Assembly: GCA_043816965.1 (NCBI GenBank)
Contig: JBDRHK010000055.1
Span: 1-32,595 of the forward strand
Direction of reading: 5' to 3'
Source of the DNA: Candidatus Iainarchaeum sp.
GTDB lineage: Archaea; Iainarchaeota; Iainarchaeia; Iainarchaeales; JAFCCJ01
DNA length: 32,595 bases
Shown here in pieces: positions 11,880 to 32,595 of this stretch; the stretch's first letter is position 1, and each line of letters starts with the position of its first letter. The position numbers and the translations under genes were made by a program. The notes under the pieces are model-generated. The model made no database searches. It had not been told where the DNA came from and worked only from the letters and a program-made list of their open reading frames with translations.

Positions 11880-11951
11880 GCTAAATAAGTATGGCGTGGT
11901 GGTATAAAAAGCTATTGTTTTGCTTTGGTTGGGGATTCGATTCAGATGAAT

Positions 11952-12401: not shown

Positions 12402-12405
12402 CAAT

Positions 12406-14700: not shown

Positions 14701-14704
14701 TCTT

Positions 14705-16993
14705 TCACTTCCCTAGGTTCTTCACCTTAAGCAGCCTCTTAAGGAGATGGGCATTCATCCAGTTCTTCCACTCACCCAAAGCGGTTTCATAATCAACTTC
14801 CCCATGCTCTTCCAATTGGTCCTCCTTTATGAGCATCAGCTTGTTGTTTGCAATTACTGAATTCTCGGCCTCAAGAAGCATCGGAATATTGTGCTTGTTT
14901 TTCATCTCAACAAGGTAGTTTTTCGCCAAACCGTTCATCCTTATGCTCTGCCACATTTGTTCCATTGTAAGCCCGCTGAAAGAGCTTATCTTTGAGAACA
15001 GCTCGCTCTCTTTTAAGTTATCCTCGAGCAACTCCAAATCATCCTTTTTTGCATTGTAACTCATAAGGTCCAGAAGGGCGTTCTCCTGATCAGGGTCTGT
15101 GGTCCAATGCTTTTTAACCTCTGTAATCTGCACAACCCTCCTATGGCTCCTTAGAGAACCTGAAAACCTTATAGGCCTTGCAACCACAACAATATCTGTT
15201 GCCTTGAATGAGGTATTGGGGACATCCAAATCATTCACAACCCTGTCCCAAACACTGTATGCAGAATCCCCGTGGATTGTACCCATAACAATGTTTCCCG
15301 CGGCACCGACCCTCATTGCCTCATAAAGGACCTTTGCTTCCTTGCTCCTTACCTCACCCAATACAAGGGCAGAATCACCAAGCCTTAAGGCAGTTCTCAA
15401 GGATTCTTCCGGGGAGACCTCGGATTCAGATTTGCTTACCCCTATGGGAGATCTTGTTTTCAGCCTTTGTATGTTGAAGCCTATGTTTTTCAGGTAGGGA
15501 ACAGGAATCTCCAGGGTGTCCTCCTGAACAATTATCCTTGCGTTCTGGAGTATCTCAAGAACTAGGGCAGTCATCAGCGAGGTTTTTCCAGAGCCCCTTG
15601 AGCCTGTTACAAGCATTGTTGCCTGGTTGTCGATGAAGAATGAAATTAGCCCTGCGGCAAGCGGGGGGAGGAAATTAACATCAATGAACTGCGGCAGGGT
15701 CCATGGGGTGACCTTATGGAGGCGGAATGCAAATGCCGTTCCGTCAGGCGCAAGGGGGGGGCCTATTGCCGCAACCCTTGTATCCAAATCAGGGAGGTCA
15801 AAGTCCAAAACAGGATGGGCCTCATCAAATGGCCTTCCGCTCATTGCCCTCATCTTCGAGACCATTGAGCCTGCCTCATCCTCTGTGTAAATCACATTTG
15901 TCTGGCACTGGCCATAATCAGAATGCACAACATATAGCGGCTTCTGCCCTATCGGGGAATCAACATAAATGTCTGTAAGGTTCCTATCAGAGAGAAGAAT
16001 TTCAAGTACCCCATAACCAACAGTATAGCGCGCAACAATCTGGCTAAGCTCAACTATCTCATCCTTCTCCAGATGAATGCTGTTCCCAGTACAGATATCC
16101 CTAATTGTTGATTGATAGACCCTCTCAAAATATTTCCTGCTTTTTGCGATTGTTGAAAGCGACGTCCTCCCTGGGCGGTAGGTTGCAACAACTTCCCTAG
16201 TTTTACTCAGGACAAAGTACTTGTCAGGAGGGAGGGAATATTCAGGGGGGTTTATGAAATACAATCTTTCCGGCTTGTTTGGGTGCTTGAAAATCTGAAC
16301 CGGTGAATCCTTAACCATGTACTCGTCCAGGAGCTCAAGCTTTTCCATCTCATCAAACAGCAGCCTTGAACCGATGAAGCTTGGCTTTACCTGTGCCTCA
16401 AAAAATGTCCTGTATAATTCCCCTGTTTCAGGAACTTCCTCGAGTTTTGAGAGGATTTCCTTCGCGCGCTGAATGAGCTCAGTTGATTCCAGCATCTTCT
16501 TGGTATAAAGAAGTGTTTTCAGGTAAACATCCACATGCTTCCCTGAATCCTTCTCCGCATCATATGCCTGCTTCTCCCTCCTTGTTTCCTGCAGCAGCCT
16601 AATATATGCTGCAAGCGGGTCAAACATCAAAAGTTCATGGGCAATGGTTACAATGGCATCATGCCTTTCCCCAAACTTGGTTTCCCCCTCTATTTTCGCA
16701 TCCCCTAAATGCGAATAGCTCCAGATGCTTTCAACCTCAAATTTCTGGCCAACTGCAGCAATCTCGCCTAGCATCTTTGTCTGCTTTTCCTCATAAACCC
16801 TTTCATAAACCTCTGCAAGTACGATTAAGTCTGCCTCAACCTCCTGCAGAATTCTAAGGACGTGGTTTCTGCATGCCTTGTCATCGGCAACAGAGGTGCC
16901 GTAAATGCAGTCCCTGCAATCAACAAGAAGGTGCCTCTTTCCGCCCTTATCCTTTACAATGTAAGGCCCAACTTCAAATCCGCCAATTTTCAA
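14705..16993 (-). CDS. Type II/IV secretion system (VirB11/TadA/FlaI family) pilus assembly ATPase, long archaeal form (762 aa)
   Basis: Walker A GSRGSGKT, Asp box IIVQEDTLEI, Walker B ALVLGEVR, His box GTIHG. N-terminal CxxC-x11-CxxH. TTG start with GGTGAT RBS. Confidence 0.93.
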   Translation of the reverse strand: MKIGGFEVGPYIVKDKGGKRHLLVDCRDCIYGTSVADDKACRNHVLRILQEVEADLIVLAEVYERVYEEKQTKMLGEIAAVGQKFEVESIWSYSHLGDAKIEGETKFGERHDAIVTIAHELLMFDPLAAYIRLLQETRREKQAYDAEKDSGKHVDVYLKTLLYTKKMLESTELIQRAKEILSKLEEVPETGELYRTFFEAQVKPSFIGSRLLFDEMEKLELLDEYMVKDSPVQIFKHPNKPERLYFINPPEYSLPPDKYFVLSKTREVVATYRPGRTSLSTIAKSRKYFERVYQSTIRDICTGNSIHLEKDEIVELSQIVARYTVGYGVLEILLSDRNLTDIYVDSPIGQKPLYVVHSDYGQCQTNVIYTEDEAGSMVSKMRAMSGRPFDEAHPVLDFDLPDLDTRVAAIGPPLAPDGTAFAFRLHKVTPWTLPQFIDVNFLPPLAAGLISFFIDNQATMLVTGSRGSGKTSLMTALVLEILQNARIIVQEDTLEIPVPYLKNIGFNIQRLKTRSPIGVSKSESEVSPEESLRTALRLGDSALVLGEVRSKEAKVLYEAMRVGAAGNIVMGTIHGDSAYSVWDRVVNDLDVPNTSFKATDIVVVARPIRFSGSLRSHRRVVQITEVKKHWTTDPDQENALLDLMSYNAKKDDLELLEDNLKESELFSKISSFSGLTMEQMWQSIRMNGLAKNYLVEMKNKHNIPMLLEAENSVIANNKLMLIKEDQLEEHGEVDYETALGEWKNWMNAHLLKRLLKVKNLGK

Positions 16994-17209: not shown

Positions 17210-18094
17210 TTACACTCTTGAGGGGAGTTTGGAATCCCTTTCATTGTTCATATAGATTTTGGTTATGAACAGTGTTTGCAGAAGAAGTGTTAATGCATAA
17301 TATGCAAACATCAGTGGCAGGCCAATTATTATTGCCGCAATAATTCCTACTATGTAATGGACATAGTATAACGCAACAATAATTACTACTGGCACAAGAA
17401 TTATTATTTGGGCAGCAATGCCAATCACCATGCCGACTGCCATAAGGGTAATCAGATAACCAAGATTGCTGAGGAAGTTCATCTTTCCAAGGCGGATTAC
17501 CCTCTTGAAAACCCCGACAATCGATTCCTGCGAAAGCACCGCACAGGGCGCGACCAGCACTATGAAGGGCCAAACTATGATCATAAGTGGAATCATTAAA
17601 ACCATGAGCAACAGCATCCATAGGATGCCGACAATGGGGATTAGCATCGGAATGAAGAGGATGATATAAATTACAAACACAATTAGCCCCAATAAAAGAT
17701 TGACCCCCAAAATTGTCAGATATCTTTTCTTTGTTTTCTGGAAAGATTCCCCCAGAGAACAGTCCCCGGCATTAATGAAGTCAGCAATCGAATTATACAG
17801 GAGCCCCTGAATTATTGGCCCGACAAAAAGCATGACAAGGGTAAGCACAAGAATGGCGACAAGGATTCCAATTGCCAAAAACGAGATAATGGCTGTTTGT
17901 CCGCCCCCTGCCCCCAAAGTTACAATGCCAAATATCAGCCCGCCTATAACCAAAAGGCATGCTAAAATAATCCCAAAAATAATGGCAAGAATAATTGCGA
18001 CAATTTTCCATAATTTTGGCAAAAGAAGGCTGGTCAAAATGAATTTCAGGTCCTTGCTAATTGCATTCAGAAATGCGTCCAATTTCTTTCCCAT
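17210..18094 (-). CDS. Polytopic membrane protein (about 294 aa), hydrophobic family often annotated as glycerophosphodiesterase-membrane-domain/DUF-like
   Basis: About 6-7 TM with the two-fold 'sl.e.f....k..l..lg..ll' pattern. The ATG at 18094 is more plausible than the TTG at 18112. Confidence 0.75.
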   Translation of the reverse strand: MGKKLDAFLNAISKDLKFILTSLLLPKLWKIVAIILAIIFGIILACLLVIGGLIFGIVTLGAGGGQTAIISFLAIGILVAILVLTLVMLFVGPIIQGLLYNSIADFINAGDCSLGESFQKTKKRYLTILGVNLLLGLIVFVIYIILFIPMLIPIVGILWMLLLMVLMIPLMIIVWPFIVLVAPCAVLSQESIVGVFKRVIRLGKMNFLSNLGYLITLMAVGMVIGIAAQIIILVPVVIIVALYYVHYIVGIIAAIIIGLPLMFAYYALTLLLQTLFITKIYMNNERDSKLPSRV

Positions 18095-18130
18095 AGATAG
18101 TTTTTTATTCAAGAAAGGATTAATAACTAT

Positions 18131-19240
18131 ATGTCTGAATTTTTTGCGATTGATGCATTAAGCCCGGCCTTTGACAGAACCATGAAATTCTTCTCCGGAC
18201 CAAATTTACTGATTAAGTGGCTTAAATTTGGATTTATTGTTTTCGTCTTCATGATTCTGAGTGGACAGGGAAGCGGGAGTGGAGGAAACTTCAGCAGCTC
18301 GGATATGAATGGGTTTTCAAATCTATTTTCAAGTCTAATTCCCACTATAGGCTCAGAAATTATCCTTATTGTTATTGTCGGGGCATTTCTAATTTTATTG
18401 ACTATTGGAATTATCGCATTATTGCTGAAAAACACCGCATTCTTCTCAATTCTGGAATCACTAAAATCTGATGATGTGAGGATTATTGAATATGCGATGA
18501 AGAATTTTTTGAAAGGCGTTTATTTCTCGCTGCTTGAAATTGCCGCATTTATTTTAATGCTGCCTTTAATGATTATCGTTGGAGTAACTGCAATGGCAAT
18601 TATTTTCGCATTCATTAATGTATTTATTAGCTTATTAGGCAGCAGCGCTACCCTTGCTTCCACATTCACTGACCCAAACCTATCAGGAATACTCACTACG
18701 CTTTCTGATCCAATTGTTTTGCTTGTACTTGTCCTCCTCTCAATAATCTCAATAATAATTATTATGGTTGTTGGTTACCTCCTCCACCAGTTTGTAAAAT
18801 ACCTTATGTTTATTGAAGGGCTGGGACCCATTGGCGCACTAAGGAAAAGCGTCTCCCTCATACTGGGAAATCTTTTGGAGATAATTATTCTGATGCTTAT
18901 ACAGGTTGTGTTTGTAATCGCACTTACTATCGTGGGATTTGTGATTGGGCTGTTACTTATCATTCCTTTGTTAATCGGATTTTTTATTTTTGTGGCTGTG
19001 TTCGCCATTGCATATTCAGCTTCCCCGATCCTGGGAATTCTGGTCGGCATAATAGGGTTTATTTTGTTCCTTGTGCTTTTGTATATTGTAATTACAATTT
19101 TTTCCCCTCTCTACGCCTTCTTTTTCAACTATAATATGGTCTTCTTAGAAATGCTTTTAGGGAAAGGAAAAGGAATTAAAGGAGTTAATGCAACTAATTC
19201 TGTAAATGCCCGGAAAAGAATGTCCTCCCCAACCGCTTGA
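18131..19240 (+). CDS. Polytopic membrane protein (369 aa), archaeal family with Gly/Ser-rich N-terminal loop
   Basis: AIDALSPAFDRT...WLKFGFIVF...GQGSGSGG followed by about 7 TM and an internal GPIGALRKS motif. Architecture resembles the divergent neighbour. Confidence 0.8.
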   Translation: MSEFFAIDALSPAFDRTMKFFSGPNLLIKWLKFGFIVFVFMILSGQGSGSGGNFSSSDMNGFSNLFSSLIPTIGSEIILIVIVGAFLILLTIGIIALLLKNTAFFSILESLKSDDVRIIEYAMKNFLKGVYFSLLEIAAFILMLPLMIIVGVTAMAIIFAFINVFISLLGSSATLASTFTDPNLSGILTTLSDPIVLLVLVLLSIISIIIIMVVGYLLHQFVKYLMFIEGLGPIGALRKSVSLILGNLLEIIILMLIQVVFVIALTIVGFVIGLLLIIPLLIGFFIFVAVFAIAYSASPILGILVGIIGFILFLVLLYIVITIFSPLYAFFFNYNMVFLEMLLGKGKGIKGVNATNSVNARKRMSSPTA

Positions 19241-19751
19241 CAGGAAAGAGATTTCCAGAAGCGGGAAATTCCTTATTGGCCTTGTTGCATTTTTTGTCCT
19301 GCTTAATTTATTGTTCTCATTAATTCCACTTGAGTGGGTTGAGTTTGTTTTTGCATTTTTAACTTCACTAATATTTTCGGTTTTCGGGGCGCAAAATGAA
19401 CTGGTTTATGGTGAGCCAGTTATAATTCTTCTACATAACTTTCCCCTCCCAATCTCCATCAGCTACTTATGCACAGGCCTGTTGGAACTGAGCATTATTG
19501 TTGCCGCGGTTGCCGCCTCATTCGGAATCAAAATTGAAAAAAGAATTGCGGGAATAATTGCTGCGACAGCAACAATCTTCGCGTTTAATTTAACCAGGAT
19601 TGTTCTCAGCATTGGGATAATTCTTCTCTTTGGTTTGGAGATTGGTGAATTAAGCCACGAGGTCCTTTTCAGGATATTCCTTTTCCTTGTGATTGCCGGA
19701 TTTTACTTCATCTGGTTCAATTGGGCGACAAAAGGCGAGCAAAAGAATTAA
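19206..19751 (+). CDS. Exosortase/archaeosortase family protein (181 aa)
   Basis: Membrane protein with the Cys-Arg-His triad in family context: ISYLCTG, FNLTRI, LSHEV, and a C-terminal FIW. Confidence 0.88.
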   Translation: MPGKECPPQPLDRKEISRSGKFLIGLVAFFVLLNLLFSLIPLEWVEFVFAFLTSLIFSVFGAQNELVYGEPVIILLHNFPLPISISYLCTGLLELSIIVAAVAASFGIKIEKRIAGIIAATATIFAFNLTRIVLSIGIILLFGLEIGELSHEVLFRIFLFLVIAGFYFIWFNWATKGEQKN

Positions 19752-19779
19752 TAATAACTTCCAACTTAGTTTTGAAACT

Positions 19780-22278
19780 ATGGATGAAGCATCTGCAAAA
19801 TTCGAGCTAAAGCCAAACAAAACCGCTTTTGTGTATTTTCGTTTTATTATGGGCCTGGTCGGGGGGCTTATCGGGCTTGTAATTGCTTCAATTATTGTAA
19901 CTTTATTTTTCGGCCCAATTGCTGTTTTAGCAATAGGTGTTTTTGTTTTTCTGTTAATCGCAAAATCAGCAATCAGTTTCATTTCATTAACTGTCCAGTA
20001 CAGGAAAACCCGCTACCTGTTTTTTGAAAATAAAATCATCACAAAAACCGGGGGGATTTTGAGCGAGCGGGAAACCGAGATGGTGATAAGAAACATCACG
20101 CATGTTACCTTGATTAAGCCATTTATAGAAAACAAGATTTTCAAGACCGCAAACATTCTGGTTGAACTTGCGGGAAGCGCCAATGTTGAGGGGCTGCTTT
20201 TCTCAATCGATAAGCCTGACGAACTCTATCAGGGAATTCTCGAGATTATGCAGGTAAATGGTTTCAGCCTGCTGAAAGGGACTTTGGTGCAGAAAGAGAA
20301 GCCGAGCAAAATCGGGATTGTGATGGAAATAATGGGCATGGGCTTCGGGCTTTTCTTCCTTGGCATTTACATCGGCCTGCCGCTTATCAGTTTCCTTGCT
20401 TCGGTTGGCGGAATTGTGCTCCTGCTTGCAGGATTTGCGCTACTCGCAATTGCATTCCTGGCCTTTGCGTTCATCAGGTTCATGAACCTGCTGATGAGAA
20501 CTTACTACATTTACGATGACACAATAGTCTACAACGAGGGCTTCCTCACAAAAGTGAATTCATTCATCCCTATCGAGAACCTTGCTGACTCAGAAATCAC
20601 ACAAAGCCTTTGGGACAAGATTTTCGGATTGTATGATGTGAAAATCAGCTGCCAAGGGGCCACACACGAGATACTTTTCAAGAACATGAAAAACGGGGCG
20701 CAGATGGAGAAGAGCATTGACGGATTAATCGCAAAATCAAAATCATTGGTCGGAACCGGAAAAAAAGTTGGAACTGTCAAGGGCGAGGTTGCGGAGAAAA
20801 AAATCGCGCCGGGGAAGGCGGCTGTGGTTAATATGGATGAATCTTTCACCGCAAAATATAAGATGGATTTTATGAAGTCGTTTATTGGCCCTTTGGGAGG
20901 GGCGATTATTATGTTTTTAATTCTTGCAATTCCCACTTTGGGGCTCACTCTAATCCTGATCCCTCTTTCATTCATTTTCATCGCCATCCCAATCCTCATA
21001 ACTGTCAGCGCAACAACTTTCCAGGTGAAGCCGAAAAGCATGGAGCAGAGGTTTAATTTCCTGAACTCAAGGAATGTTGAATTCACCAATGATAAGATAA
21101 CCGGGGTGCTTATTGTGCGGGACATACTGGATGAATTTTTCAAAACAATGTCAATCCAGTTTTGGTCTATAGGGGCAACGCACAACATTAATTTCTCAAA
21201 CATAAAACGAACTCCTGACTTAGCAGGAAATATTCTCGGAAAATTCGGGATGACTGAGCAGGAGCCAATTTACTCTGTTGGTTCAAATTTTGGGATAATC
21301 GCAATGCTTAAATCCCATCTCTTTGTCCCGTTGCTTGCAATTGTTGGGCTCGCGGCCACGGGAATTATTCTGCTTGCTCTTCCAGGGCTTGAGTTTTTCG
21401 GAATTATTTCAATCATAATTTCAATCGCAATTCTAATTATTTACGCAGGGCTTGTAATCTATAAATACATGTTCTACAAAACAACAAAACTGGAAATTTA
21501 CAAAAATTATGTGCATTATTGCGAGGGAATCTTCAACAAAAAATATTATTACTCGCTATATGACAACATAAAGGACATTAAGACAGTGCAGATTCCATTT
21601 TCAGATTTGGGAACGATTGTGTTCAATGTTGCGGGGGAAATGATTGTGGGGCAGGCTAAGGGCGGTGGATTGCAGAACATGCCAGGCGGCGGGGGCAGGC
21701 CAAATGCAATGCAGGGAATGCTTGCATCCCATAATTTCAAAATCAACTTTGTCCAGGGAATTTCAACAAAAGACGACCTTATTGACATGATATTCCACAA
21801 GCGCCTTACTGCGGCACAGATTAAAAGCATGGAGGCAAACATCAAGGAATCTGATTCGGAAAACCTTGCTATTGCAAAGCCGGCGGTTGCAAACACCCTT
21901 CTCCCGCTGATTGTAATTATGCTTGTGGTGAACACAGTTATTGTCCTGCTCATCGTGGCGATAAGCCCGATTTTAATAATTCCTCTTGTGCTTATTGACT
22001 TGCTTATTTTTGCCTATGCAGTGGGGAGTGTGTTGGTTACCTCATATGCAATCCAGCCCTACCGCGTGGTTGCAAAATCAGGAATTCTGTTCAAGACACA
22101 GACATCAATAATTTTCGGGAAGATCGACCATTTAAGGTCAAGCGAGGGATGGATGAACAAACTTTTCCGGAACGGAAATATCACTGTCCACACCACAGGG
22201 AGCAGCCTGCCTGAAATAACAATCAAGGACATTCCTGCCTACCGGGAATTCTACCAGAAGCTTGAGAAATACTACTGA
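19780..22278 (+). CDS. Membrane protein with five tandem (2TM + bacterial PH, bPH_2/YdbS-YdbT-like) modules (about 832 aa)
   Basis: Five repeats of a TM hairpin followed by T.Y.i....i....G.l.......i...I..v......ifg.g.i.v...G. The ATG at 19780 has a TATA-like box at about 19748-19756 and avoids the overlap implied by the TTG at 19693. Confidence 0.85.
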   Translation: MDEASAKFELKPNKTAFVYFRFIMGLVGGLIGLVIASIIVTLFFGPIAVLAIGVFVFLLIAKSAISFISLTVQYRKTRYLFFENKIITKTGGILSERETEMVIRNITHVTLIKPFIENKIFKTANILVELAGSANVEGLLFSIDKPDELYQGILEIMQVNGFSLLKGTLVQKEKPSKIGIVMEIMGMGFGLFFLGIYIGLPLISFLASVGGIVLLLAGFALLAIAFLAFAFIRFMNLLMRTYYIYDDTIVYNEGFLTKVNSFIPIENLADSEITQSLWDKIFGLYDVKISCQGATHEILFKNMKNGAQMEKSIDGLIAKSKSLVGTGKKVGTVKGEVAEKKIAPGKAAVVNMDESFTAKYKMDFMKSFIGPLGGAIIMFLILAIPTLGLTLILIPLSFIFIAIPILITVSATTFQVKPKSMEQRFNFLNSRNVEFTNDKITGVLIVRDILDEFFKTMSIQFWSIGATHNINFSNIKRTPDLAGNILGKFGMTEQEPIYSVGSNFGIIAMLKSHLFVPLLAIVGLAATGIILLALPGLEFFGIISIIISIAILIIYAGLVIYKYMFYKTTKLEIYKNYVHYCEGIFNKKYYYSLYDNIKDIKTVQIPFSDLGTIVFNVAGEMIVGQAKGGGLQNMPGGGGRPNAMQGMLASHNFKINFVQGISTKDDLIDMIFHKRLTAAQIKSMEANIKESDSENLAIAKPAVANTLLPLIVIMLVVNTVIVLLIVAISPILIIPLVLIDLLIFAYAVGSVLVTSYAIQPYRVVAKSGILFKTQTSIIFGKIDHLRSSEGWMNKLFRNGNITVHTTGSSLPEITIKDIPAYREFYQKLEKYY

Positions 22279-22343: not shown

Positions 22344-22724
22344 ATGAGGAAAGAAGTTCTGGACTGGCTTAATGCTGCAGAAGATGACCTGGAGACTGCA
22401 AGGATTCTTTTTTCAAAGGAAACCTATTATGCCTGCGCTTTTTACTGCCAACAGGCGGCAGAAAAGGCATTGAAAGCCCTGTACATTTTTAAGCAAAAAA
22501 AGGGAACTGCTTCACACAATTTAATATCTATTGCAAAGGAATTGCATGCGCCCGAAAAAATTCTGGCCGCATCAAAAAGGCTAAACCCCCACTACATCCA
22601 AACAAGATACCCTGATGTGGCAAATGCAATCCCAAAAGAGGCCTATGATGAAGAAATTGCCGAAGAACTATTGGAAAAAGCAAAAGAGGTATTTGAATGG
22701 GGCGAACAGCAAACACACAAGTGA
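22344..22724 (+). CDS. HEPN domain protein (putative toxin of HEPN-MNT pair)
   Basis: WL..AEDDL..A, FYCQQAAEKALKA, HNL and YIQTRYPD motifs typical of COG2250-type HEPN. Confidence 0.93.
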   Translation: MRKEVLDWLNAAEDDLETARILFSKETYYACAFYCQQAAEKALKALYIFKQKKGTASHNLISIAKELHAPEKILAASKRLNPHYIQTRYPDVANAIPKEAYDEEIAEELLEKAKEVFEWGEQQTHK

Positions 22725-23011
22725 TTGAAAACTTTGCCAGAAGGCTTAGAAAAGATTTTAAGGATGCGAAGGTGTTCCTTTTTGGCTCAAGGGCAAGGGG
22801 TGATGATCTGCTTGAATCAGATTATGATGTATTGGTTGTGAGCAGGCAGTTTGAGGGAACCAGATTCTTTGAAAGAACTGAAAAAATGTATGATTACTGG
22901 AACGAGAAGCAGGCCCTGGAGGCATTTTGCTACACGCCGGAAGAATTAAGGCATAAATCCACCCAAATAGGCACGGTAAGGGAAGCAATGAAAAAAGGAG
23001 TAGAGGCATAA
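22697..23011 (+). CDS. Minimal nucleotidyltransferase (MNT, Pol beta superfamily), putative antitoxin
   Basis: LFGSRARG....SDYDVLVV and YTPEE motifs. Overlaps the HEPN gene. GAGGT RBS at 22686-22690. Confidence 0.93.
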   Translation: MGRTANTQVIENFARRLRKDFKDAKVFLFGSRARGDDLLESDYDVLVVSRQFEGTRFFERTEKMYDYWNEKQALEAFCYTPEELRHKSTQIGTVREAMKKGVEA

Positions 23012-23085: not shown

Positions 23086-23133
23086 GTGTGCACTCAAATT
23101 AATCATAATGGGTGAATTGCCTTCGGGGATTTG

Positions 23134-26100
23134 ATGGGTTTATCGGACGCGATAGGGACTTTCTATTCAGGGATTGAGGAGCAGTACTATGCATTAATGG
23201 ACTCTCTCGAGGAAAAGGGCCTGCCTGTTTACAAATTGATTGACCCTTTGGAGGAAAGGGGAATTCCCGCCTTTCCCGCAACAATTGCGCTGATTCTTAT
23301 TGTTCTTGCCCTTGTTTTTGGTTTTTTCTTTGTGGGTGGCTCACCTGAGATTGCGCTTAACCTTAGCATCGAGGACCAGTTTGAGAGTTCAATTAGCGGG
23401 GTTTCCATTGAGGTGAAAAGGGCTGATGGCAGCAATCTTGAGCTTAGTAAAAGCAAGTATGGTGATGGAGACACTATTGATATCGGGCCACAGGGAATTG
23501 GCTCTGAACTTGAGGTTCTGGCAAGCAAGGAAGGCTATGTGGGTTCCAGTACAATGGTTTTAATCGGGACCGAAAAGAAAGAAATCAGGGCTATCCTGAA
23601 GCTTGAAAAAATACTGACCCCAATCAACGCAAAGATAAGGCTTGTCGATGATACAGGAACATTGATTAAAGATGCAAAAGTTGTGCTCCTCTCAGATGAT
23701 GATGAAATAACCTGTACCGACAGCAATAAGGACGGTGTGTTTGAATGTATCGGCATATCTGAGGATGTCGGGGTTATTCTTAAGGTAGAATCCACCAATT
23801 ATGAGACTATTAGCGGGCGGCAGTTAAGTTTCAGCGAAGGGGATGTTGAAACAGTTTCCCTTGTTGCAAAGCCTGATGCAAATGAGGGCAAATCAAATCT
23901 TCTGATAAGGGTTCATGATAAGGCAACCGATGAACTGGTGGAAAACATCTCACTCCAGATATTCAACGGCATTGATGATGCGCTGATTACAAACAGGGAT
24001 TTGGAAGAGGGGGAATTTGCAGAAAGCCTGGATAAGGGAACTTTAGTAAGGGTGGTTGTTTCTTCCGAGGGCTATATTACATATGATTCAAGTGTTGAGG
24101 GGAAAAATATCACCCTCAGGAATGATGAGGAAATAATGGATATTAAGCTCCTTCTTGGGGGGACAAATTTAAGGGTGGCAATAATTGATGCAGACAATCT
24201 TTCACCAGTTCCGGATGCAGATGTCCAGCTTTTTAATGTTAATTCTGAGCTGCTCAACTATCAGAAAACCGGCTTTGGCGGAACTATTTATCTCAATGAT
24301 TTGAATTCAGAGGCAACATATTACATAACCGCATATTCCGGCAGGCACCTGCCCACAAGGCTGGAGATTATACCTCTGCAGCAGACTGATGTGGAGATTA
24401 AGCTTGTGACAAGGACCGCCTCCAACTCGGCGGCACTGAACATAGAGGTCAGGAATTCCGGAGATGAACTGCAGAACAATTCAACACTTAATTTTTATGA
24501 GATGGTTGCTGGCAAGGAACTGCCTTTAGGCATTAAGCAGGAAAAGACTGATGTTTTCGGGAGATATATTGCACAGCTTGCTGTGGGAAAAACCGTTAAG
24601 GTAAAGGCATACCATGAAAGGGAGGGAGGAGAATCTGAAAAGATCATTGCCCCGCTTTCAAATGACATGACAATAAACATGGAAACCATAGAGGGAATGG
24701 TGACCCTTATGCTTACCGATTCCGGGGGAAATCCAATTACCGGCGGGGAACTTTTGATTGAATCTCCCTCCGGGGAAATCCTCTATGATGCAGATGTTAT
24801 TGACGGGGAAATTTACTTTGACCCTAAAGGAAAGGATTATGTTGTTGTGACCTACACCGCACCTGACGGAAGCGAATATGTCGAGGAAATAAATGTTGAG
24901 GGGAAAAATTTAATTGAAATGGTTCTCGGCGGGGCCAAAACCCTTCTTGCCCCTGAAATTAATTTCCTCGGTGTTTTCGACGCCTCTGGGAAGGAAGTTG
25001 GCGGAGTTGTAAAGGGCGAGGATTATTACCTGAAATTTGAGACAATATGGCCTGATGGAACTTACAATGCAGGGGTGCATGTAAGGGTCGGGGATGATTT
25101 TGTCAAGTATGCTGATACTGATGATGTCGGGGTTCTTGGCTTTTCCGCACAGGGCGCAAGGTACTTTTATGGAAGGAGCTATTCACCCCTGCCTGAACCA
25201 GGGTTTGAGGGAATTGATTTCCAGAACATGGGTTCGGCTGGAGAATTCAACAAATGGGTTGAGCTTTATTTCGATTCCGGGAACGGGACAAGGATTGTTA
25301 AGATAAGGGTTCAGGCCAAGGCAACAGCCAATGCAAGTGAGTTTGACGTTCACTACCGCGCCTGGGCAAAAATTGGCGGGGAAACTTATAGAAGCCCGGA
25401 GGATAATGTGTTAGGGGGGGCGATTTACACCGACACAAGGACAAGCCTTTATGCCGAAACAAACACCGAAACCCTGAAGATTTTCGATGAAAGCACAAGA
25501 TGCAACAATGAAATTTGCGCCAATTACAAGTTTGTGAGGCAGGACGGAACAGAATACCTGCCTGAGGAATTCAAGGCAGCCATCAATGAACTATATGCGC
25601 TGGAGATTGAGCTTAACCCCTCTGAAAACACAAATGCAACCATCAAGGCATCCACCTCCCAGACAAATCCAAAAATTGCATTCACTGGTTACGGGATTGA
25701 CTCTTTTGGCGAGTTTCCTGACAACGACAAATTGGACACCTCTGTTGAGGCAAATGATATCAGCGTTCTTGCAAACCGCCCGCTGAGGGCAAGGCTCTTT
25801 TTCAAAACCCAGAAAGTGGAGAGCAGTTCAATCAGCCTGCAGATTATTACTGAGAAAACAGTTGTTGAGGAGAATTTTCACTTCAACATCCACCTTGAAA
25901 GGGATATGGAAATCAGCATATACCCTGAATTTGTTTCCACAGGGGAGAATTTCACAGTAAACCTCAAATCTGAGGACAGTTCCCCAATAACAGATGCCGA
26001 GATAAAAATTACGGGCGAAAGCGGGGAACATCTCCTAACCATTGTGGGAAACGGCACAAACAAAAACGGGTCAGGCGGGAATTACGAGATAAGCAACACT

Positions 26101-29100
26101 TTTGGTGCCGGGAAAATTAATCTGGAAATTACCGCCTCAGGATTCAGGCCTGTCAAGAAAACAATCGAGATTGGAATGGAGGGAATTTTGTCACTCCCGC
26201 CCAAGATTGAGATTGACCTAGAAAAAATTGCCGGAGGGGCAAATGACTCTGCTAAGGAGATTAGTGTGGAGATTGAAAATGCATCCAATGATTTGGTGCA
26301 GGATTTGAGTTATGAAATTGTAAATGATGGGGGTTTCCCTGGAGGTATGGAAATTACTGCCTCAGGAAGCACATCAGTGAACAAGGGTTCAGATTCAGAT
26401 GTCAGGGTTAAGGCATCTTACAATGGTGATGGTGAAAGGGAGTATGGTGAGGCGGAATTGGTTGTTTCAGGAACTGTTTCAGGGAAGTATCTTGCAAGGG
26501 CAACAAGCAGGGTTGTTGTAAGGTACAATCCTGAACTTGAGGACAGCTGCATTGAGCTCAGCAAGGAGAAACTTGTTGTTTACATAGTGGGTGAGGAGAA
26601 TTCATCTGTTGAGGAAACCCTTACAATAAAGAACAACTGCAACCTGAGGGTCAGTTTAATTCCCGAGATTGTTGAAAAGAGGGGTGATGAGAAGATTCTA
26701 ATCGAGCTGAATGAGGTAAGCCTTGAGCCAAGCGGCAGCAAGAGCGGGGGGAGAAACACCGATGAGGCAGAGGTAAATGTCGCAATAACAAACCTGCTCG
26801 CAAGAAATTATCCCCAAAAGAAGAAATACACTTACGAGATTTATTTCAACTCAGATGCCATCACAAAATCCCTTCCTGTCGAGGTTTATGTATGGAACAA
26901 GAGTTTCGCGCTGCAGGTGAACAGGAATATTGAGCTTTGGCTTACCGAAACAGACAGTGGAAAGCCCCCGGTTTCACAGGTTCCGCTTTTTGTCCAGAAT
27001 ATCGGTGAGGCAGACATTGAAAATCTCACTTTTTCAATATCCGCGCAGCACAGCAGGGGAAGTGTTGATGTCCGGGTTTTGCCGCCGATTGATGTCCCTG
27101 TGCTGAAAAAAGGGGCAACGCTCTTCCCCACAAAATGGATAGTGGCAACCGCGATAAGGACTGAAAAAACTACTTTGGCAGATGTCTCGCAGATTGAGGT
27201 AAAGGGCTCAATCAACGGGCAGCAATATGATTTCGGCCCAATCTTTATAACCTCCCATGTTTCCGCCCCTGAATGCCTAAAGGCAAGCACCAATTATGTG
27301 CAATTTGAGGCTCCAACAAGCAAGGCAGGGTCATTGAGTTATCCAATTAAATTAAGGAATACCTGTGCTGAAGAACTGAGGATCAGGGGCATTGACCCCT
27401 TCATGTTTGGCTCGAATAAGATCTATATTGACAAGCCAGATATTTCCCTCTTCCCGGGAGAAGAGGTTGAAATGCTCCTCATACTTGACAAGAGAGAGGA
27501 TTGGCAAACCACTGCACCTGTAAGATTCAAGGCATTTGGCAGCATAAGCCAGGTTTGGATTGATTCAACCCCTATTAATGTTGATATAAAGCTTGGCGTG
27601 TTCTCAACTGAAAAGGGGGCATCAACAGAGGCAGTAACTATGAAAGTCTGCGGGACCGAAACCAATGACAACAAAAAGGGCGAGGAGAAATTGGTTAAAT
27701 TCCCCAGGATTGCAACGCAGGCAAATTGTGATGTCGCATACTGTGATGCGGAATTATTGGCGCAGTTTTTGGCAGACAGGATAGAGTCAAAAGTAAGGGA
27801 TGCCAAGAGGCAGATATCCAATTACAAGGAGGAGGTGATTAACTCCTCATGCAGCCCTTATGAAACTTTCTGCTCCTTCGACGGATTGGGGGTGAGGAGT
27901 GAAATCTTCTATGTGTATTTCCAGAACGACAGTTTAAGCACTGAAATGCTGAGGTCAGCGCTGACGACCAAGGACGAACTGAAGTCTTTTAGGGTAGACA
28001 CTATTATTCCCGGAACTGATTCAGGGCTTTTGATTGGCGGAATCGGAAACCAGCTCTTCCTGAATGATTCATTCCGCGGATGTGGAAGATATAGTGTCCG
28101 CATAACCGGCGCTGCCAATGTCACAGGCAACCACATAGATTCAGACCACATATCTGTGCTGCTTGACCTCCACAGCTCGGAGGCCGAAGGGGGAGCCATA
28201 AGGGAGATGACCGAGCAGTGCGACAACAAGATACAGAATGTCATGAATTTCCTGCCGGTGGATAAATCCTACACAAAAGCTGACCCAAAAGAGAGCTGGC
28301 TTTCAACTGTTGAAACCGAGGATTCAGAGCTTGATGCTTTGGGAGAGGAGGTTGCGAAGGAATTGTTCGGTTCAAAGGACAGGCTTGCAACACTTTCGGC
28401 CGGAAATATTCTTGAGCTGAGGCTGGGAACAGAGCCAGGCTATATCACAAAGATAGAGATGGAAAAGTTTGGCGATGTCGCGAGAAGAAGGGTTTATGCG
28501 AACATAAAGGAATCAGTAGGGGGCGGCGGGGAACTGCAGGCAGAGATTGCTAAGGAGGCCGCAAAGGCTATAGGCCAGCTTTCCGGAAATGAAATTGATG
28601 GCTGCATTTCGCCTGATGAGGACTATTTCCTGATTAAGTCAGCAAAGGAGATAGGAAAGCTCAATATTGAGTCATGCGAAGCAGGCAAATTGGGCATATT
28701 GCCTGAAGCAGTGAATTGCTGCGATTTCAATATTGTTGATGAGGTCCCGGAGATAGTGAATGTTGATATCAGGCTAAAGGAGGAGAGGCAGGGAATTGAG
28801 GAGCCATATATAACAGATGACAAAGGCAATAAAATTAGCGGAGATATTGAACTTGAATTTGAGAAGGATGGGAGGTATTCTGAACAGTTCCAGCTCTGTG
28901 CGGTTGGGAGCAAGCAGGACTTCCAGAACTCGAGGGGAAAGAAGATTGTGATAACTGCGGAATCTGCAACCGACAAGGCAAAGAAGGCGCAGGAGAAAGA
29001 GGTTGAGCTGCAGATTTGCGGAATACATCCAAAAAACCTCCTTGAGAAAATAAGCGCCGCAAAGGAGGGGGAGCATTACTTCACCCCTGTGTGGAAGGGC

Positions 29101-31479
29101 ACTCCTGATGAAATTTCACTGAACAGCATAAGGCTGATGGGCGAGGCAAAGAAGAACAGTGCAGAAGCGGCAAAAATAAGGACAAGCGGCGATAGCATAA
29201 GCGGCAGTTTCATGGATTTAATGAAAAAACCGGAAGTTAAGGCAATGACCTTTGGTTATTTGCCTGTTTGCGGACTTACCACCTTTGCATTAAGCGGAAT
29301 TAAATCACTGGGCGTTTCCTTCTGGCCTGAATTCTTCATGACTTGCGGGCTTCCATATTTCTGGGCAATTGCCGATGAGTTGCCTGTTGCAAGGGATTTC
29401 AAACAAATCCTCCTTAATTCATGGGATACTATCCTGGGCTTCTTCCAGGGCGAGCAGAAAACAATTGCCGAAAGGGCGCAGGATACATCTGCGGCGGGCA
29501 GTGAACTGGACGGGGAATTCTGGGATATTGTTGACGGGGCAATTGTAGGGGTGGGCTCAAGAACTGGCTGGAGATCGGTATCTGCCGGCTGGGACAGCGC
29601 CGAAACCTTCAGCAATGCGAAAGTGGCTAAATCTTTATCTGACAAGATAAGTGACGGAATTATGGATGAATATGTAAACAAGAGGGGGTCATTGAGCGGG
29701 ATTTCCGGAGATACGGCGGCAAGGTCAAAACTTGAAAGCACCCTGCGAACAAAAATGAAGGAATCCCTGGAAAAGGAATTCAAAGCTATTGACTTTGCAA
29801 AAGAGGGGAGTAATGAGCAGGTGAGATTAGCTGTTCAGAAAACTATGGGGGAATTCGGAAGCGACAAAGCACTTGCAGAAGCAATTCTTGACGCAAAGAC
29901 CAAGGGGGTTTTGAACAGCAATGGTGAGGAACTGCTCAAAAAAAGTTCTCGCGAGATAGTTAAAGAGAAGGTCAAACCCGCAGATATTGCAGAAGAATTA
30001 GGAAGCATATATAAGATAGGGGATAAAGTTGGGCCAGCTCCAGCGGACCCTACTGAGGCAAATTTTAATACTTTTAAGAATAACACTATGAATGACTTGA
30101 AAAAGGCATCAGGAGATCTAAAACCTATGAAAGACGCAATTTCAGATAAGATTCTGGAGAGCCTCGATACCCCAGATCTTGTCGATAAGGCAAAGTTGAA
30201 CCAAAAAATTAGCAGAGTAGTGAATAATATTACGCAACAAGATCTAAAGGTAGATTGGGAAATCTTCGATCAAACTGGAAAAAGAATAAAGGGGGTAAGA
30301 GTTGACGGATTGAACTGGCCTACTCCAAATAATCCTATTTTTAATGAAATTGAAATATTGTGGCAAGATCCGGACATGAAAGTGAAATATACTGCTACCC
30401 TTTCAGATGATTCTACCAAAAAAATAATTAGGGAATCTGTTGCTGCAGTTAATAGGGATTTGCATGAAGAACTGGCAAAGGGAATTAAGACAGGGGTTTC
30501 AAAAGGATTTGCATCAGAAGCTTCAGAGGATATTGCTGAAAAGGTATTGGAGAAGTCTAAAAATATTAAAACCGAAAGAGGTTTCTTCAGGAAGCTTTTG
30601 AAAACGCCTTTCACTAAAGAGTTCTGGAAAAATCTGGGGAAGGGGGCATTTACAGGAGCGGTTGCAAATGGTGCCGGGCTCTTTGCTTACGATCAGCTGA
30701 TGAAATACTATGAATCCGGGACAGACACAGCTAAAATTGAAACATTCCTGACCGGAACTGGCGGGGATGATAGGGATAACGATAATGACGGGAAGGTTGA
30801 TGAGGAAATCTGCGACGGGATTGACAATGATGGCGATTCACATGTGGATGAGGACTGTTATGATGTTGAATCTGACCAGCTGTTTGAGAAATACAAGACA
30901 TACTTGGTCGAGATTAAGGCTGATGCCGGGCAGAAAACATACGAGATTGAGGAAGTCACAATGGACAAGGTTCCCTCAGGGGCAAGCTGGCTGCAGACCT
31001 GCAATGATAAATCCTTGGATGAGGCTGCTGAAAATTTCCTATGCACACTTACCCCTGACCCAAATCATGGGCTCTTTAAAGCAGGCGATGCAAAGTACAT
31101 CGAACTTTATTACAAGAGTTACTGTGGGGTTATGGCAGGGGCGCAGAACGATTATGGCGTGCCCGAGGCATTGCTTGTCACTGTCGGAATCTGGAAAAGC
31201 GAGATGGGAACCAAGGGCAAGGACCATATGCTGGGCTGCGATGTCGGAAATCCAAAATCCAAATCACCCGAGGAAAACATAAGATGTGCTGCTGAGGAAT
31301 TGGAGAAAATAATTCCCACTTGTACAGGGATTGATGAAAAGGAAAAAATAAAATGTGTGCTGGAGAAATACAACGATGCCCCGAATAATCTCAAATCCAG
31401 CACGGCTGATTATGCCGTGCTTGTGGAAACCTATTGTGCCTGGCAAAAATTCAACACAGCAGGACTGCAGGCGTGTTAA
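23134..31479 (+). CDS. Giant N-terminally membrane-anchored surface protein (about 2781 aa): carboxypeptidase-regulatory/Ig-like beta-sandwich repeats, helical insert, acidic metal-binding motif, C-terminal SLT/lysozyme-like domain
   Basis: Single TM at about aa 45-68. Repeated i.v.D..g..i..A.V.l....G...GY units. EEICDGIDNDGDSHVDEDC motif. C-terminal YGVPEALL...WKS...PEENIRCAA...KYND. The ATG at 23134 follows GGGGA. Confidence 0.88.
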   Translation: MGLSDAIGTFYSGIEEQYYALMDSLEEKGLPVYKLIDPLEERGIPAFPATIALILIVLALVFGFFFVGGSPEIALNLSIEDQFESSISGVSIEVKRADGSNLELSKSKYGDGDTIDIGPQGIGSELEVLASKEGYVGSSTMVLIGTEKKEIRAILKLEKILTPINAKIRLVDDTGTLIKDAKVVLLSDDDEITCTDSNKDGVFECIGISEDVGVILKVESTNYETISGRQLSFSEGDVETVSLVAKPDANEGKSNLLIRVHDKATDELVENISLQIFNGIDDALITNRDLEEGEFAESLDKGTLVRVVVSSEGYITYDSSVEGKNITLRNDEEIMDIKLLLGGTNLRVAIIDADNLSPVPDADVQLFNVNSELLNYQKTGFGGTIYLNDLNSEATYYITAYSGRHLPTRLEIIPLQQTDVEIKLVTRTASNSAALNIEVRNSGDELQNNSTLNFYEMVAGKELPLGIKQEKTDVFGRYIAQLAVGKTVKVKAYHEREGGESEKIIAPLSNDMTINMETIEGMVTLMLTDSGGNPITGGELLIESPSGEILYDADVIDGEIYFDPKGKDYVVVTYTAPDGSEYVEEINVEGKNLIEMVLGGAKTLLAPEINFLGVFDASGKEVGGVVKGEDYYLKFETIWPDGTYNAGVHVRVGDDFVKYADTDDVGVLGFSAQGARYFYGRSYSPLPEPGFEGIDFQNMGSAGEFNKWVELYFDSGNGTRIVKIRVQAKATANASEFDVHYRAWAKIGGETYRSPEDNVLGGAIYTDTRTSLYAETNTETLKIFDESTRCNNEICANYKFVRQDGTEYLPEEFKAAINELYALEIELNPSENTNATIKASTSQTNPKIAFTGYGIDSFGEFPDNDKLDTSVEANDISVLANRPLRARLFFKTQKVESSSISLQIITEKTVVEENFHFNIHLERDMEISIYPEFVSTGENFTVNLKSEDSSPITDAEIKITGESGEHLLTIVGNGTNKNGSGGNYEISNTFGAGKINLEITASGFRPVKKTIEIGMEGILSLPPKIEIDLEKIAGGANDSAKEISVEIENASNDLVQDLSYEIVNDGGFPGGMEITASGSTSVNKGSDSDVRVKASYNGDGEREYGEAELVVSGTVSGKYLARATSRVVVRYNPELEDSCIELSKEKLVVYIVGEENSSVEETLTIKNNCNLRVSLIPEIVEKRGDEKILIELNEVSLEPSGSKSGGRNTDEAEVNVAITNLLARNYPQKKKYTYEIYFNSDAITKSLPVEVYVWNKSFALQVNRNIELWLTETDSGKPPVSQVPLFVQNIGEADIENLTFSISAQHSRGSVDVRVLPPIDVPVLKKGATLFPTKWIVATAIRTEKTTLADVSQIEVKGSINGQQYDFGPIFITSHVSAPECLKASTNYVQFEAPTSKAGSLSYPIKLRNTCAEELRIRGIDPFMFGSNKIYIDKPDISLFPGEEVEMLLILDKREDWQTTAPVRFKAFGSISQVWIDSTPINVDIKLGVFSTEKGASTEAVTMKVCGTETNDNKKGEEKLVKFPRIATQANCDVAYCDAELLAQFLADRIESKVRDAKRQISNYKEEVINSSCSPYETFCSFDGLGVRSEIFYVYFQNDSLSTEMLRSALTTKDELKSFRVDTIIPGTDSGLLIGGIGNQLFLNDSFRGCGRYSVRITGAANVTGNHIDSDHISVLLDLHSSEAEGGAIREMTEQCDNKIQNVMNFLPVDKSYTKADPKESWLSTVETEDSELDALGEEVAKELFGSKDRLATLSAGNILELRLGTEPGYITKIEMEKFGDVARRRVYANIKESVGGGGELQAEIAKEAAKAIGQLSGNEIDGCISPDEDYFLIKSAKEIGKLNIESCEAGKLGILPEAVNCCDFNIVDEVPEIVNVDIRLKEERQGIEEPYITDDKGNKISGDIELEFEKDGRYSEQFQLCAVGSKQDFQNSRGKKIVITAESATDKAKKAQEKEVELQICGIHPKNLLEKISAAKEGEHYFTPVWKGTPDEISLNSIRLMGEAKKNSAEAAKIRTSGDSISGSFMDLMKKPEVKAMTFGYLPVCGLTTFALSGIKSLGVSFWPEFFMTCGLPYFWAIADELPVARDFKQILLNSWDTILGFFQGEQKTIAERAQDTSAAGSELDGEFWDIVDGAIVGVGSRTGWRSVSAGWDSAETFSNAKVAKSLSDKISDGIMDEYVNKRGSLSGISGDTAARSKLESTLRTKMKESLEKEFKAIDFAKEGSNEQVRLAVQKTMGEFGSDKALAEAILDAKTKGVLNSNGEELLKKSSREIVKEKVKPADIAEELGSIYKIGDKVGPAPADPTEANFNTFKNNTMNDLKKASGDLKPMKDAISDKILESLDTPDLVDKAKLNQKISRVVNNITQQDLKVDWEIFDQTGKRIKGVRVDGLNWPTPNNPIFNEIEILWQDPDMKVKYTATLSDDSTKKIIRESVAAVNRDLHEELAKGIKTGVSKGFASEASEDIAEKVLEKSKNIKTERGFFRKLLKTPFTKEFWKNLGKGAFTGAVANGAGLFAYDQLMKYYESGTDTAKIETFLTGTGGDDRDNDNDGKVDEEICDGIDNDGDSHVDEDCYDVESDQLFEKYKTYLVEIKADAGQKTYEIEEVTMDKVPSGASWLQTCNDKSLDEAAENFLCTLTPDPNHGLFKAGDAKYIELYYKSYCGVMAGAQNDYGVPEALLVTVGIWKSEMGTKGKDHMLGCDVGNPKSKSPEENIRCAAEELEKIIPTCTGIDEKEKIKCVLEKYNDAPNNLKSSTADYAVLVETYCAWQKFNTAGLQAC

Positions 31480-31524: not shown

Positions 31525-32595
31525 ATGAATCAAAGGGCATTCACATTGTTCACTGCGCTTGTTTCTTTTGTGCTAATTATACTGGTCGCGCTTCTTTTGC
31601 AGGCGATGAGAAGCACTGAGGACAGTTTTATGGACAATATTTCTGACATTGAGGAAAGGGCTGAAATGCAGGCTGTTGCCGACATGGCAAGGGCAGATGC
31701 CCTGCAGGTTGTTAACTTTGTAATAAGGTTTGATTTTGAGACGTGGATTTCGGACAATGTCTATCAGGTAGGGCCTGATGTTGAAAGCTGGGATGACACC
31801 ACCAATTACTTTGCGGAAAGATATCTTGGTGCAGGAGGGGGAACAATCCAGCTGGCAAACAGGATTTCAGTACATATGTCCAGCCTTGTAGATGTAACGC
31901 CTGATGTTAGGGGGTATAAGGTTAGTTTAGTGGCGCCGGATTCAGACCTTATGACACTGCACCTCCAAAAGATTATTGAGGAAGGGAGTGACAGCGGGGA
32001 TTTTTTTGAGGTTATCCAATGCCCTGATGGCAAATTTGATGATTGCCTGGGGACGTTTTATGTCAATCTTGACATGAGCATACTGGATGATTTTGAATAT
32101 GAAGACCTGCCGCAAATAAGGGTGGAGAACACCCTAACAGGAAGGGTATTGCAGGAGCCTGTGCTCCCAAGGGGAAATTTCCGTGTCTATGTTCCATTAA
32201 GGCTGTTCAAGGCGCTTGCCGGGGCCAGGGAGCTTGCGCACACAAGCACCGATGGCAGGGAGGATTATGGATTATTCAGCCCGAGAATCCATAATGAGCT
32301 GGAGGAGATGCGATTGGGGTTTTGTGATTATGGTTATTGCAATCCAAGGACCGATGTTTATGTGGCTCCGGGACAAAAAAACTGGAATACTTTCTGCCCC
32401 CCAAATCCAGCAATTAGTGTTTCAGTAGTTCCAGTAAGCTCAAGAATTGATAGGGGAATTGGGGACGGGAGCTATAATCCTGCAAATCCCCAGTCAATAA
32501 ACTCAGAACTCAGGAAACTCGCAGAGGAAAGGGTGAATTTTATAGCAAACCAGATAGGAAAAGACGTTATAGACAACGACCCTGAATTTTTACTC
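31525..32595 (+). CDS. Large class III signal peptide (pilin-like) protein, 3'-truncated by the window (at least 357 aa); absent from the ORF track
   Basis: Hand translation: MNQRA/FTLFTALVSFVLIILVALLLQAMRSTEDSFMDNISDIEERAEMQAVADMARADALQ..., with the frame open to the window end (...DNDPEFLL). AT-rich TATA-like sequence at about 31488-31508. Confidence 0.85.
   Translation, partial: MNQRAFTLFTALVSFVLIILVALLLQAMRSTEDSFMDNISDIEERAEMQAVADMARADALQVVNFVIRFDFETWISDNVYQVGPDVESWDDTTNYFAERYLGAGGGTIQLANRISVHMSSLVDVTPDVRGYKVSLVAPDSDLMTLHLQKIIEEGSDSGDFFEVIQCPDGKFDDCLGTFYVNLDMSILDDFEYEDLPQIRVENTLTGRVLQEPVLPRGNFRVYVPLRLFKALAGARELAHTSTDGREDYGLFSPRIHNELEEMRLGFCDYGYCNPRTDVYVAPGQKNWNTFCPPNPAISVSVVPVSSRIDRGIGDGSYNPANPQSINSELRKLAEERVNFIANQIGKDVIDNDPEFLL

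Follow-up and report, generated by a model that had tools for sequence, protein, structure and literature searches.

The giant protein at the end of a contig of Candidatus Iainarchaeum sp., a genus of the DPANN lineage Iainarchaeota, terminates in a lysozyme-like domain in which a lysine appears to occupy the place of the catalytic glutamate. The window, by which we mean the whole stretch of 32,595 nucleotides that was analysed (contig JBDRHK010000055.1), encodes this protein, P0001, in an open reading frame (ORF) of 2782 amino acids (23131..31479, + strand). We read its terminal domain (31072..31470, + strand; model residues 58-190 aligned with MltF at a Z of 11.0) as an SLT-derived pseudo-enzyme, probably inactive and presumably kept as the binding module of a membrane-anchored giant, and put the probability of this reading at about 0.6. 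The domain would be a degenerate form of the lysozyme-like fold, belonging to its SLT/goose-lysozyme (GH23-type) branch, and it would descend from, or replace at the same position, a peptidoglycan-cleaving module that the giants of sister lineages have kept. A conserved Lys would have replaced the general-acid Glu, the GLMQ substrate loop would have been lost, and the four conserved cysteines, the fold, and the invariant aromatics would have been retained in what became a non-catalytic module.

A first-pass annotation of this DNA, made from the sequence alone, had already placed an SLT-like domain with Lys for Glu at the C-terminus of the protein. The peptides it quoted (AQNDYGVPEALLVTVGIWKSEMG, HMLGC, SPEENIRCAAEEL, CVLEKYND, and DYAVLV) all occur in the product of ORF 23131-31479 (+), and the codon 31195-31197 (+ strand) is indeed AAA and encodes a lysine, Lys2689, at the catalytic-Glu position of SLT and GH73 enzymes. 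This numbering counts from the TTG start at 23131 of the called ORF; the true start is probably the ATG at 23134, since the database copy of the giant protein is one residue shorter (2781 amino acids). The C-terminal location in a giant protein of a DPANN archaeon also holds, the nearest named record being a DPANN metagenome-assembled genome (MAG). The boundary at 31100 does not, as the structural domain begins slightly upstream, at about 31072 (model residue 58). E89, G112, C113, C129, C141, C152, Y157, W181, and C34 are given below in model numbering, not in the numbering of the full protein.

Homologues were collected with HMMER, the last 192 residues being searched exhaustively against 1.84 billion representatives. 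This search returned 21 proteins at E ≤ 0.001, eight of them at E ≤ 1e-10; word-index searches found P0001 itself and one further relative only. The match lies at the C-terminal end in 19 of the 21 proteins, and 12 of these 19 are giants of 2657-2946 amino acids, with which P0001 shares homology over about 2100-2800 residues. Alignment A1 was built from 20 C-terminal pieces, with P0019 and P0021 excluded because they matched through a short repeat only.

Structure prediction from the single sequence was unusable, with a predicted local distance difference test score (pLDDT) of 41. The AlphaFold model based on A1 reached a pLDDT of 85, and values above 90 over residues 71-180, and consists of a beta-hairpin followed by helices 61-85, 89-100, 123-140, 146-159, and 171-182. 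When it was compared with 48,161 representative chains using VIA-align, a method independent of Foldseek, the best match was MltF (Z 11.0, 126 residues aligned, root-mean-square deviation 3.7 Å), followed by salmon g-type lysozyme (10.4), an Slt (10.4), MltC (10.1), and MltE (9.7), with a GH23 chitinase (9.1), Slt70 (8.4), and GH73 enzymes (7.2-8.6) further down. By their titles, nearly all of the first 36 rows (Z 11.0-6.1) are lytic transglycosylases, lysozymes, muramidases, glucosaminidases, chitinases, or wall lysins of phages and type VI secretion systems (T6SS); the first clearly unrelated row stands at rank 37 (Z 5.7). The leading Foldseek rows in the PDB were cod g-type lysozyme (E 0.076, TM 0.48/0.52), MltE, a T6SS glycoside-hydrolase effector, MltC, and MltF, and the top rows in the viral library BFVD were proteins of the same kinds. 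The terminal domain is thus predicted to belong to the lysozyme-like fold superfamily, which holds GH23, GH73, GH19, and GH22, and the SLT-type fold proposed in the first pass is borne out by the model (pLDDT 85), the structural matches (Z 11.0-9.7), and the profile comparison described next (91%).

This profile comparison linked the domain to bona fide SLT sequences. A1 was aligned by hhalign with A2, a set of 14 canonical SLT domains from the genomes of relatives, all of them PF01464 matches, at a probability of 91% (E 1.1e-6, 93 columns), the core of the match lying at 31117-31389. The reversed A2 gave 0.15%, and shuffling gave at most 0.2% in 30 trials by single column and at most 5.6% in 30 trials by block of 10 columns, so that the likeness to the SLT motifs exceeds what chance produces. 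In this alignment, VTVGIWKS falls on xxAIxxxES, the Lys facing the catalytic Glu and the two Ser facing each other, NIRCAAEEL falls on NIxxGxxYL, and LEKYN on ALxAYN, which bears out the order and mapping of SLT motifs suggested earlier. The Tyr-Asn pair (31369..31374, + strand), read as KYND, aligns with the AYNxG motif; its Tyr is invariant (41/41) and the Gly is absent.

The position of the lysine was the same in each of three separate profile comparisons. Besides A2, Lys fell on the Glu of A3, an alignment of 15 GH73 domains (23%, 35 columns), and on that of a profile made from two canonical SLTs of giants, P0025 and L006 (30.6%, E 5e-4). In the latter comparison, as in that with A2, the stretch of about 34 residues that bears GLMQ lies opposite a gap, and the Gly-Cys of the family (31234..31239, + strand; G in 38/41 and C in 40/41) pairs with a Gly-Cys that those SLTs have in addition to GLMQ. 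The earlier suggestion that HMLGC had taken the place of GLMQ must consequently be given up: the GLMQ loop is deleted and GC belongs to a separate motif. In the model, the site residue lies at the C-terminal end of a helix (89-100), and the catalytic Glu of SLT enzymes likewise lies at the C-terminal end of a helix. The domain has neither the catalytic Glu (ES motif) nor the GLMQ loop. Lytic transglycosylases and g-type lysozymes have one catalytic acid only, a Glu, and PDB titles among the structural matches label Glu-to-Gln mutants of MltE and Slt (E64Q and E503Q) as inactive; since this sole Glu is lost, the domain is most likely not a lytic transglycosylase, and the cleavage of glycan strands by such a mechanism would most likely be impossible for it.

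The first-pass annotation had proposed comparing Glu and Lys among orthologues, and Lys clearly predominates. For this census we pooled the order-wide A1 matches (30 loci, 18 further stretches, and the full-length canonical giants L021 and L022) and kept those with an i-Evalue ≤ 1e-3 that covered the site, which left 42 rows; fragments, and matches to the hairpin alone, were thereby removed, among them L053, L069-L071, and L022. Together with A1, the resulting 62 rows formed 54 clusters at 90% identity, 41 of them strong (A1 rows or locus E ≤ 1e-20) and 13 weak. The strong clusters have Lys in 33 cases, Gln in two, Glu in two, and Ala, Tyr, His, and Asn in one each; these rows are not independent, many of them coming from one family, f24 (17 genomes). 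In the 13 weak and less reliably aligned clusters, we found Asp (three), Glu (two), Gln (two), and one each of Asn, Val, Ser, Gly, Thr, and Arg. As Lys is also present in the same-genus genome and in most orthologues, it is a trait fixed in the family, not an error of sequencing. Among the other residues, Y157 and W181 are invariant, C113 and C129 are found in 40/41 clusters, and C34, G112, C141, and C152 are invariant or nearly so.

It is very improbable that the domain has kept glycosidase or lyase activity by a new mechanism, through another acid such as Glu2691 or through the lysine itself. P0001 does have a Glu two residues past Lys2689, which had been put forward as a substitute acid, and Lys is more conserved than would be expected for a dead site. 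However, this +2 position is acidic in just 10 of the 41 strong clusters and Gly in 20, which speaks against the substitution, and a single column, that of E89 in the PEALL helix ten residues upstream of the lysine, is acidic in at least 60% of members. The GLMQ loop is missing as well, and, to our knowledge, all lytic transglycosylases and GH23 lysozymes depend on their catalytic Glu.

Among the genomes searched, the domain occurs in a single DPANN order. A1 matches at E ≤ 1e-10 were found in 32 of the 215 genomes of a phylum sample, all 32 in this order, and in none of the 19 genomes outside it. Across the 196 genomes of the order, 49 had a match at E ≤ 0.001, nearly all of these ending open frames of 2100-3100 amino acids. 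The closest named relative of the domain comes from a Candidatus Iainarchaeum MAG, with 72% identity across the domain. At L038 (G001:C19:7028-7619) of the same-genus genome, the orthologue of the domain is split over frames of 239 and 926 amino acids that overlap at 7350-7408; this split is due to a frameshift or an assembly error, and the 115-residue P0003 is probably a called fragment of the split domain. Recoding at an in-frame TGA was considered for the matches of three relatives and rejected, as the TGA is a stop codon near the end of the match. On single contigs of two genomes (G053:C4 and G177:C47), two or three paralogous giants of 2451-2786 amino acids stand in tandem; the genome of the window has a single copy.

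The homologous giants show what else can be found at this end of the protein. PF01464 scans of relatives gave matches at the C-termini of giant frames whose homology to P0001 ranges from E 0 to 1e-82. In G018 (P0025, 2727 amino acids), the same hairpin and Cys segment are followed by a canonical SLT (REAG, GLMQV, and AYNGG; Pfam E 1.5e-14). In G012 (P0026, 2904 amino acids), a cysteine-free version of the degenerate domain that keeps FES is followed by a Ser/Asn linker and a canonical SLT (E 1.5e-11). The giant of G053 (2735 amino acids) has an SLT, that of G045 (3466) an SLT and a GDSL-like hydrolase (E 1.6e-10), and that of G043 (2922) an SLT and an Amidase_2 (E 3.7e-6). Glucosaminidase modules are found in G042 (2936 amino acids; 31.1 and 27.5 bits in two scans, against a curated Pfam cutoff of 30.2), together with an Amidase_2 (E 1.2e-16), and in G177 (2786; E 3.7e-9). 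The richest wall-hydrolase array seen at the C-terminus of a giant is that of G019 (L066/L075, C26:51097-53190; 3381 amino acids), with an A1-like degenerate domain, a CHAP/NlpC-P60-like match (E 6.9e-5, below the Pfam curated bit-score cutoff), and a Glucosaminidase (E 1.3e-11); this frame is tied to the family by its A1 match alone (E 1.9e-8). In the giant family, the C-terminus is thus a position at which peptidoglycan-directed modules are exchanged for one another. It is most often occupied by the Lys-type domain, with 49 of 196 genomes compared with about six giant frames that carry a canonical SLT.

Several observations weigh against a pseudo-enzyme of SLT descent. The domain does not match the SLT family significantly by PF01464: Pfam gave no family at E ≤ 10 on C-terminal pieces of 153 and 259 amino acids, and PF01464 matched none of the 20 family members at E ≤ 1. 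The first-pass annotation had staked its proposal on a lysozyme-like fold together with a profile match to SLT/GH23 families; the fold was recovered and the direct Pfam match was not. No Foldseek row in the PDB reached E ≤ 0.001, and a Z near 13 can be reached by chance arrangement with a helical model, so that we put weight on the uniformity of the VIA-align matches and not on Z itself. The placement of Lys2689 in the groove rests on the profile alignments, not on superposition, and the conserved Lys could have acquired a new catalytic or regulatory role instead of marking a simple loss. In the 32 domain-bearing genomes of the phylum sample, a canonical PF01464 was found in eight and none was seen in 24 (a hand tally over incomplete genomes), so that a peptidoglycan-directed lifestyle is not evident in most carriers. 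Finally, SLT is no more than the probable parent family within the lysozyme-like superfamily, the Glu-retaining members being equally GH73-like.

This last point bears on a different ancestry, from a GH73 glucosaminidase-type module or another lysozyme-like family instead of SLT/GH23, which we regard as rather improbable. The GH73 motif is ESGxG, and the Glu-retaining members read ITESGFGY and IMETGFGY and give weak PF01832 matches (E 4.5e-4 and 0.0036, the latter the only one among the 20 family members, with no match for P0001). GH73 modules are also present in the related giants G177, G042, and G019, and GH73 structures (Z 7.2-8.6) are among the VIA-align matches. Yet SLT gave 91% over 93 columns where GH73 gave 23% over 35, all of the best structural matches are of the GH23 type, and the YN and NIxxA motifs align with those of SLT. 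Moreover, SLT and GH73 are themselves linked at 91% (A2 against A3), as expected for two branches of one superfamily, so that the choice is between branches of that superfamily.

Other searches added little. NCBIfam returned nothing relevant on the C-terminal piece, and neither the single sequence nor the family profile found a lysozyme-like chain among PDB sequences, only chance rows (haemoglobin, E 1.2; calmodulin, E 0.12). In PHROGs, the window piece had no match and three unnamed families were hit by single members at E 0.003-0.083. In the ESM Atlas, 16 of 30 feature matches fell in SLT-carrying clusters with a score of 0.93, but with just 126 shared features, which makes it a lead only. 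The genome to which the window belongs (1.34 Mb in 109 contigs, 86% complete) has a single canonical SLT by a PF01464 scan of the whole genome, in which the window was not matched. This SLT is a protein of 293 amino acids with ES and GIGQL motifs, encoded on contig C81, and BLASTP of the C-terminal piece against it gave nothing below E 1.5. A division of labour between the giant and such a separate secreted SLT was considered and set aside, as only 8 of the 32 domain genomes also have PF01464. In this 86% complete genome, no match to Amidase_2, LysM, M23, or GH73 and no archaeal small-subunit ribosomal RNA were found.

The conservation of the domain bears on a further explanation, namely that it is a vestigial or purely structural cap, a dead domain that stabilises the end of the giant and binds no ligand. 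The disappearance of both the catalytic Glu and the GLMQ loop would suit such a cap, as would the high variability of the site in the 13 weaker, more divergent relatives and the absence of a canonical SLT from most carrier genomes. P0001 is, however, 38.8% identical to P0004 and 35.8% to P0007 at full length, over about 2800 residues, and the domain alone is 40% and 37% identical, respectively; being as conserved as the whole giant protein, it is not decaying. Lys in 33 of 41 clusters and the invariant Y157 and W181 also fit a maintained surface better than a cap, which we therefore consider unlikely, although less so than a GH73 origin.

We thus favour a pseudo-enzyme kept for binding. The aromatics, the disulfide-capable cysteines, and the fixed Lys that were kept suggest a maintained binding surface. 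A surface protein anchored in the membrane would hold a glycan, most plausibly bacterial peptidoglycan, at its far end; we take peptidoglycan as the likeliest ligand, and the link as a plausible one, because homologous giants end in true peptidoglycan hydrolase modules. The sole strongly hydrophobic segment of P0001, residues 50-68 (23278..23334, + strand; Kyte-Doolittle mean 2.99 over 19 residues), scores high at the same position in 4/4 and 6/6 homologues in two Kyte-Doolittle scans and is probably an N-terminal membrane anchor. With this segment at one end and the domain at the other, the proposed membrane-distal tip agrees with the order of the sequence, although the topology is clouded by weaker hydrophobic segments near residues 2036-2086, which are conserved in homologues. 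One can tentatively go further and imagine, for most of the order, that the peptidoglycan-cutting warhead of the giant turned into a non-lytic, Lys-bearing lectin. The Lys would contact an acidic group of the wall polymer (e.g., the lactyl-peptide carboxylates) and the cells would dock on bacterial walls without lysing them, sister lineages keeping real hydrolase arrays (SLT, GH73, CHAP, amidase, and GDSL esterase). We hold this extension to be doubtful. If it were true, the domain would show at the molecular level how bacterial partners are grasped by a lineage that, according to PMC10936187, is reportedly capable of free life.

From a broader perspective, large DPANN proteins with murein transglycosylase domains have already been published and are cited as genomic evidence of attack on, or attachment to, bacteria by some of these archaea; what is new here is a Lys-type variant that profiles do not see. 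Annotation overlooks a larger, Pfam-invisible set of such giants, and the presence or absence of SLT is hence an unsafe marker of lifestyle. The family also forms a natural series, running from active to disarmed giants, in which their mode of action can be studied.

The remainder of P0001 has few recognisable features. Pfam on the whole protein finds CarboxypepD_reg-type beta-sandwiches near the N-terminus, the best of three stretches lying at 23638..23862 (+ strand; PF13620, E 8.4e-13), and no other family. About 100-130 residues ahead of the terminal domain (window ~30640-30700), a weakly hydrophobic Gly/Ala-rich motif, G-x-x-C-G-A-x-x-N-x-A-G-Y, is conserved in nearly all homologues and reads GAFTGAVANGAGLFAY in P0001. 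Directly upstream of the terminal module, the translation shows an acidic Asp/Cys-rich repeat, DNDNDGKVDEEICDGIDNDGDSHVDEDC (30775..30858, + strand), which is also present in P0004, P0007, and P0026 and weakly matches the NCBIfam acid_disulf_rpt (E 0.48). The beta-hairpin of the AlphaFold model follows (30904..30951, + strand; strands 2-8 and 11-17), and its sequence motif is conserved in homologues, including the giants that end in a canonical SLT.

The genes around the giant hint at a filament system. The downstream ORF (31525..32595, + strand) is cut by the contig end and has an N-terminus that, by eye, resembles a prepilin-type signal; the arrangement is conserved, as in L021 and L022 the giant is followed by a gene whose product is 40% identical. 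On the opposite strand, a T2SSE-type secretion/pilus ATPase (14705..16993, - strand; PF00437, E 6.4e-17) has a 69% identical homologue that adjoins the giant gene in L022. The ATPase, a weak T2SSF-like membrane protein (12406-14700, - strand; E 5.4e-4), and seven small ORFs of 150-248 amino acids without Pfam match make up the stretch 7949-16993 (-), which looks like a type IV filament-like gene cluster, and from this neighbourhood it is possible that the giant protein works with a type IV filament-like machine. Immediately before the giant gene, two small overlapping ORFs (22344-23011, +) match HEPN (E 8e-29) and a minimal nucleotidyltransferase (E 3e-12), a pairing that is typical of HEPN/MNT toxin-antitoxin modules. 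Further upstream, an ORF of 861 amino acids (19693-22278, +) has three bacterial PH (bPH_2) domains (E 2.8e-37) and is preceded by two DUF7544-type membrane proteins (17210-18112, -; 18131-19240, +). A second large ORF of 1486 amino acids (16-4476, -) matches no Pfam family at E ≤ 0.01. In L022, an ORF of at least 1463 amino acids lies two genes downstream of the giant, and tblastn found no similarity between it and the 1486-residue ORF of the window.

Finally, P0001 can be set beside systems that are already known. PMC8204110 (2021) describes giant DPANN proteins with murein transglycosylase domains (fam00969), assigned to Pacearchaeota and Woesearchaeota, and proposes that they serve in the attachment to, or the degradation of, bacterial walls. 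Vigneron et al. 2022 (PMC9723730) likewise report large GH23 proteins in Woesearchaeota MAGs, and PMC10936187 and PMC11537232 restate the point on DPANN murein transglycosylases. P0001 fits this description of giant DPANN murein-transglycosylase proteins, the comparison with fam00969 being one of descriptions, not of sequences. Both belong to DPANN archaea with small genomes, reach up to ~3000 amino acids, and carry a lysozyme-like, wall-directed module, and full-length homologues of P0001 from the same order have a canonical PF01464 at the same end. Unlike the giants described there, P0001 has a module that is invisible to Pfam, with Lys for Glu and without the GLMQ loop, and its nearest record is Candidatus Iainarchaeum. 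In the open-access literature, we found no paper on a Lys-for-Glu or otherwise degenerate lytic transglycosylase domain.

Compared with SLT and goose-type lysozymes (GH23; Slt70, MltC, MltE, MltF, and GEWL), the domain shares the fold (Z 8.4-11.0), the order of helices, and the order of the NIxxA and YN motifs, but it has no Glu, no GLMQ loop, and no Pfam match, and it has extra conserved cysteines. With GH73 N-acetylglucosaminidases (PF01832; FlgJ, AtlA, and LytB), it has in common the superfamily, the alignment of the first helix and catalytic turn with Lys on Glu, and the position at the end of the giants where some homologues carry GH73 modules, whereas just 35 columns align, at a probability of 23%. 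Degenerate enzymes with acquired roles are familiar from elsewhere: in the dLytM factors EnvC and NlpD, degenerate wall-hydrolase domains activate amidases, and alpha-lactalbumin is a dead c-type lysozyme that modifies galactosyltransferase. Like these, the terminal domain of P0001 seems to have retained the fold of an enzyme after the loss of catalytic residues, but the folds and families are different, and the roles of the dLytM factors and alpha-lactalbumin are established.

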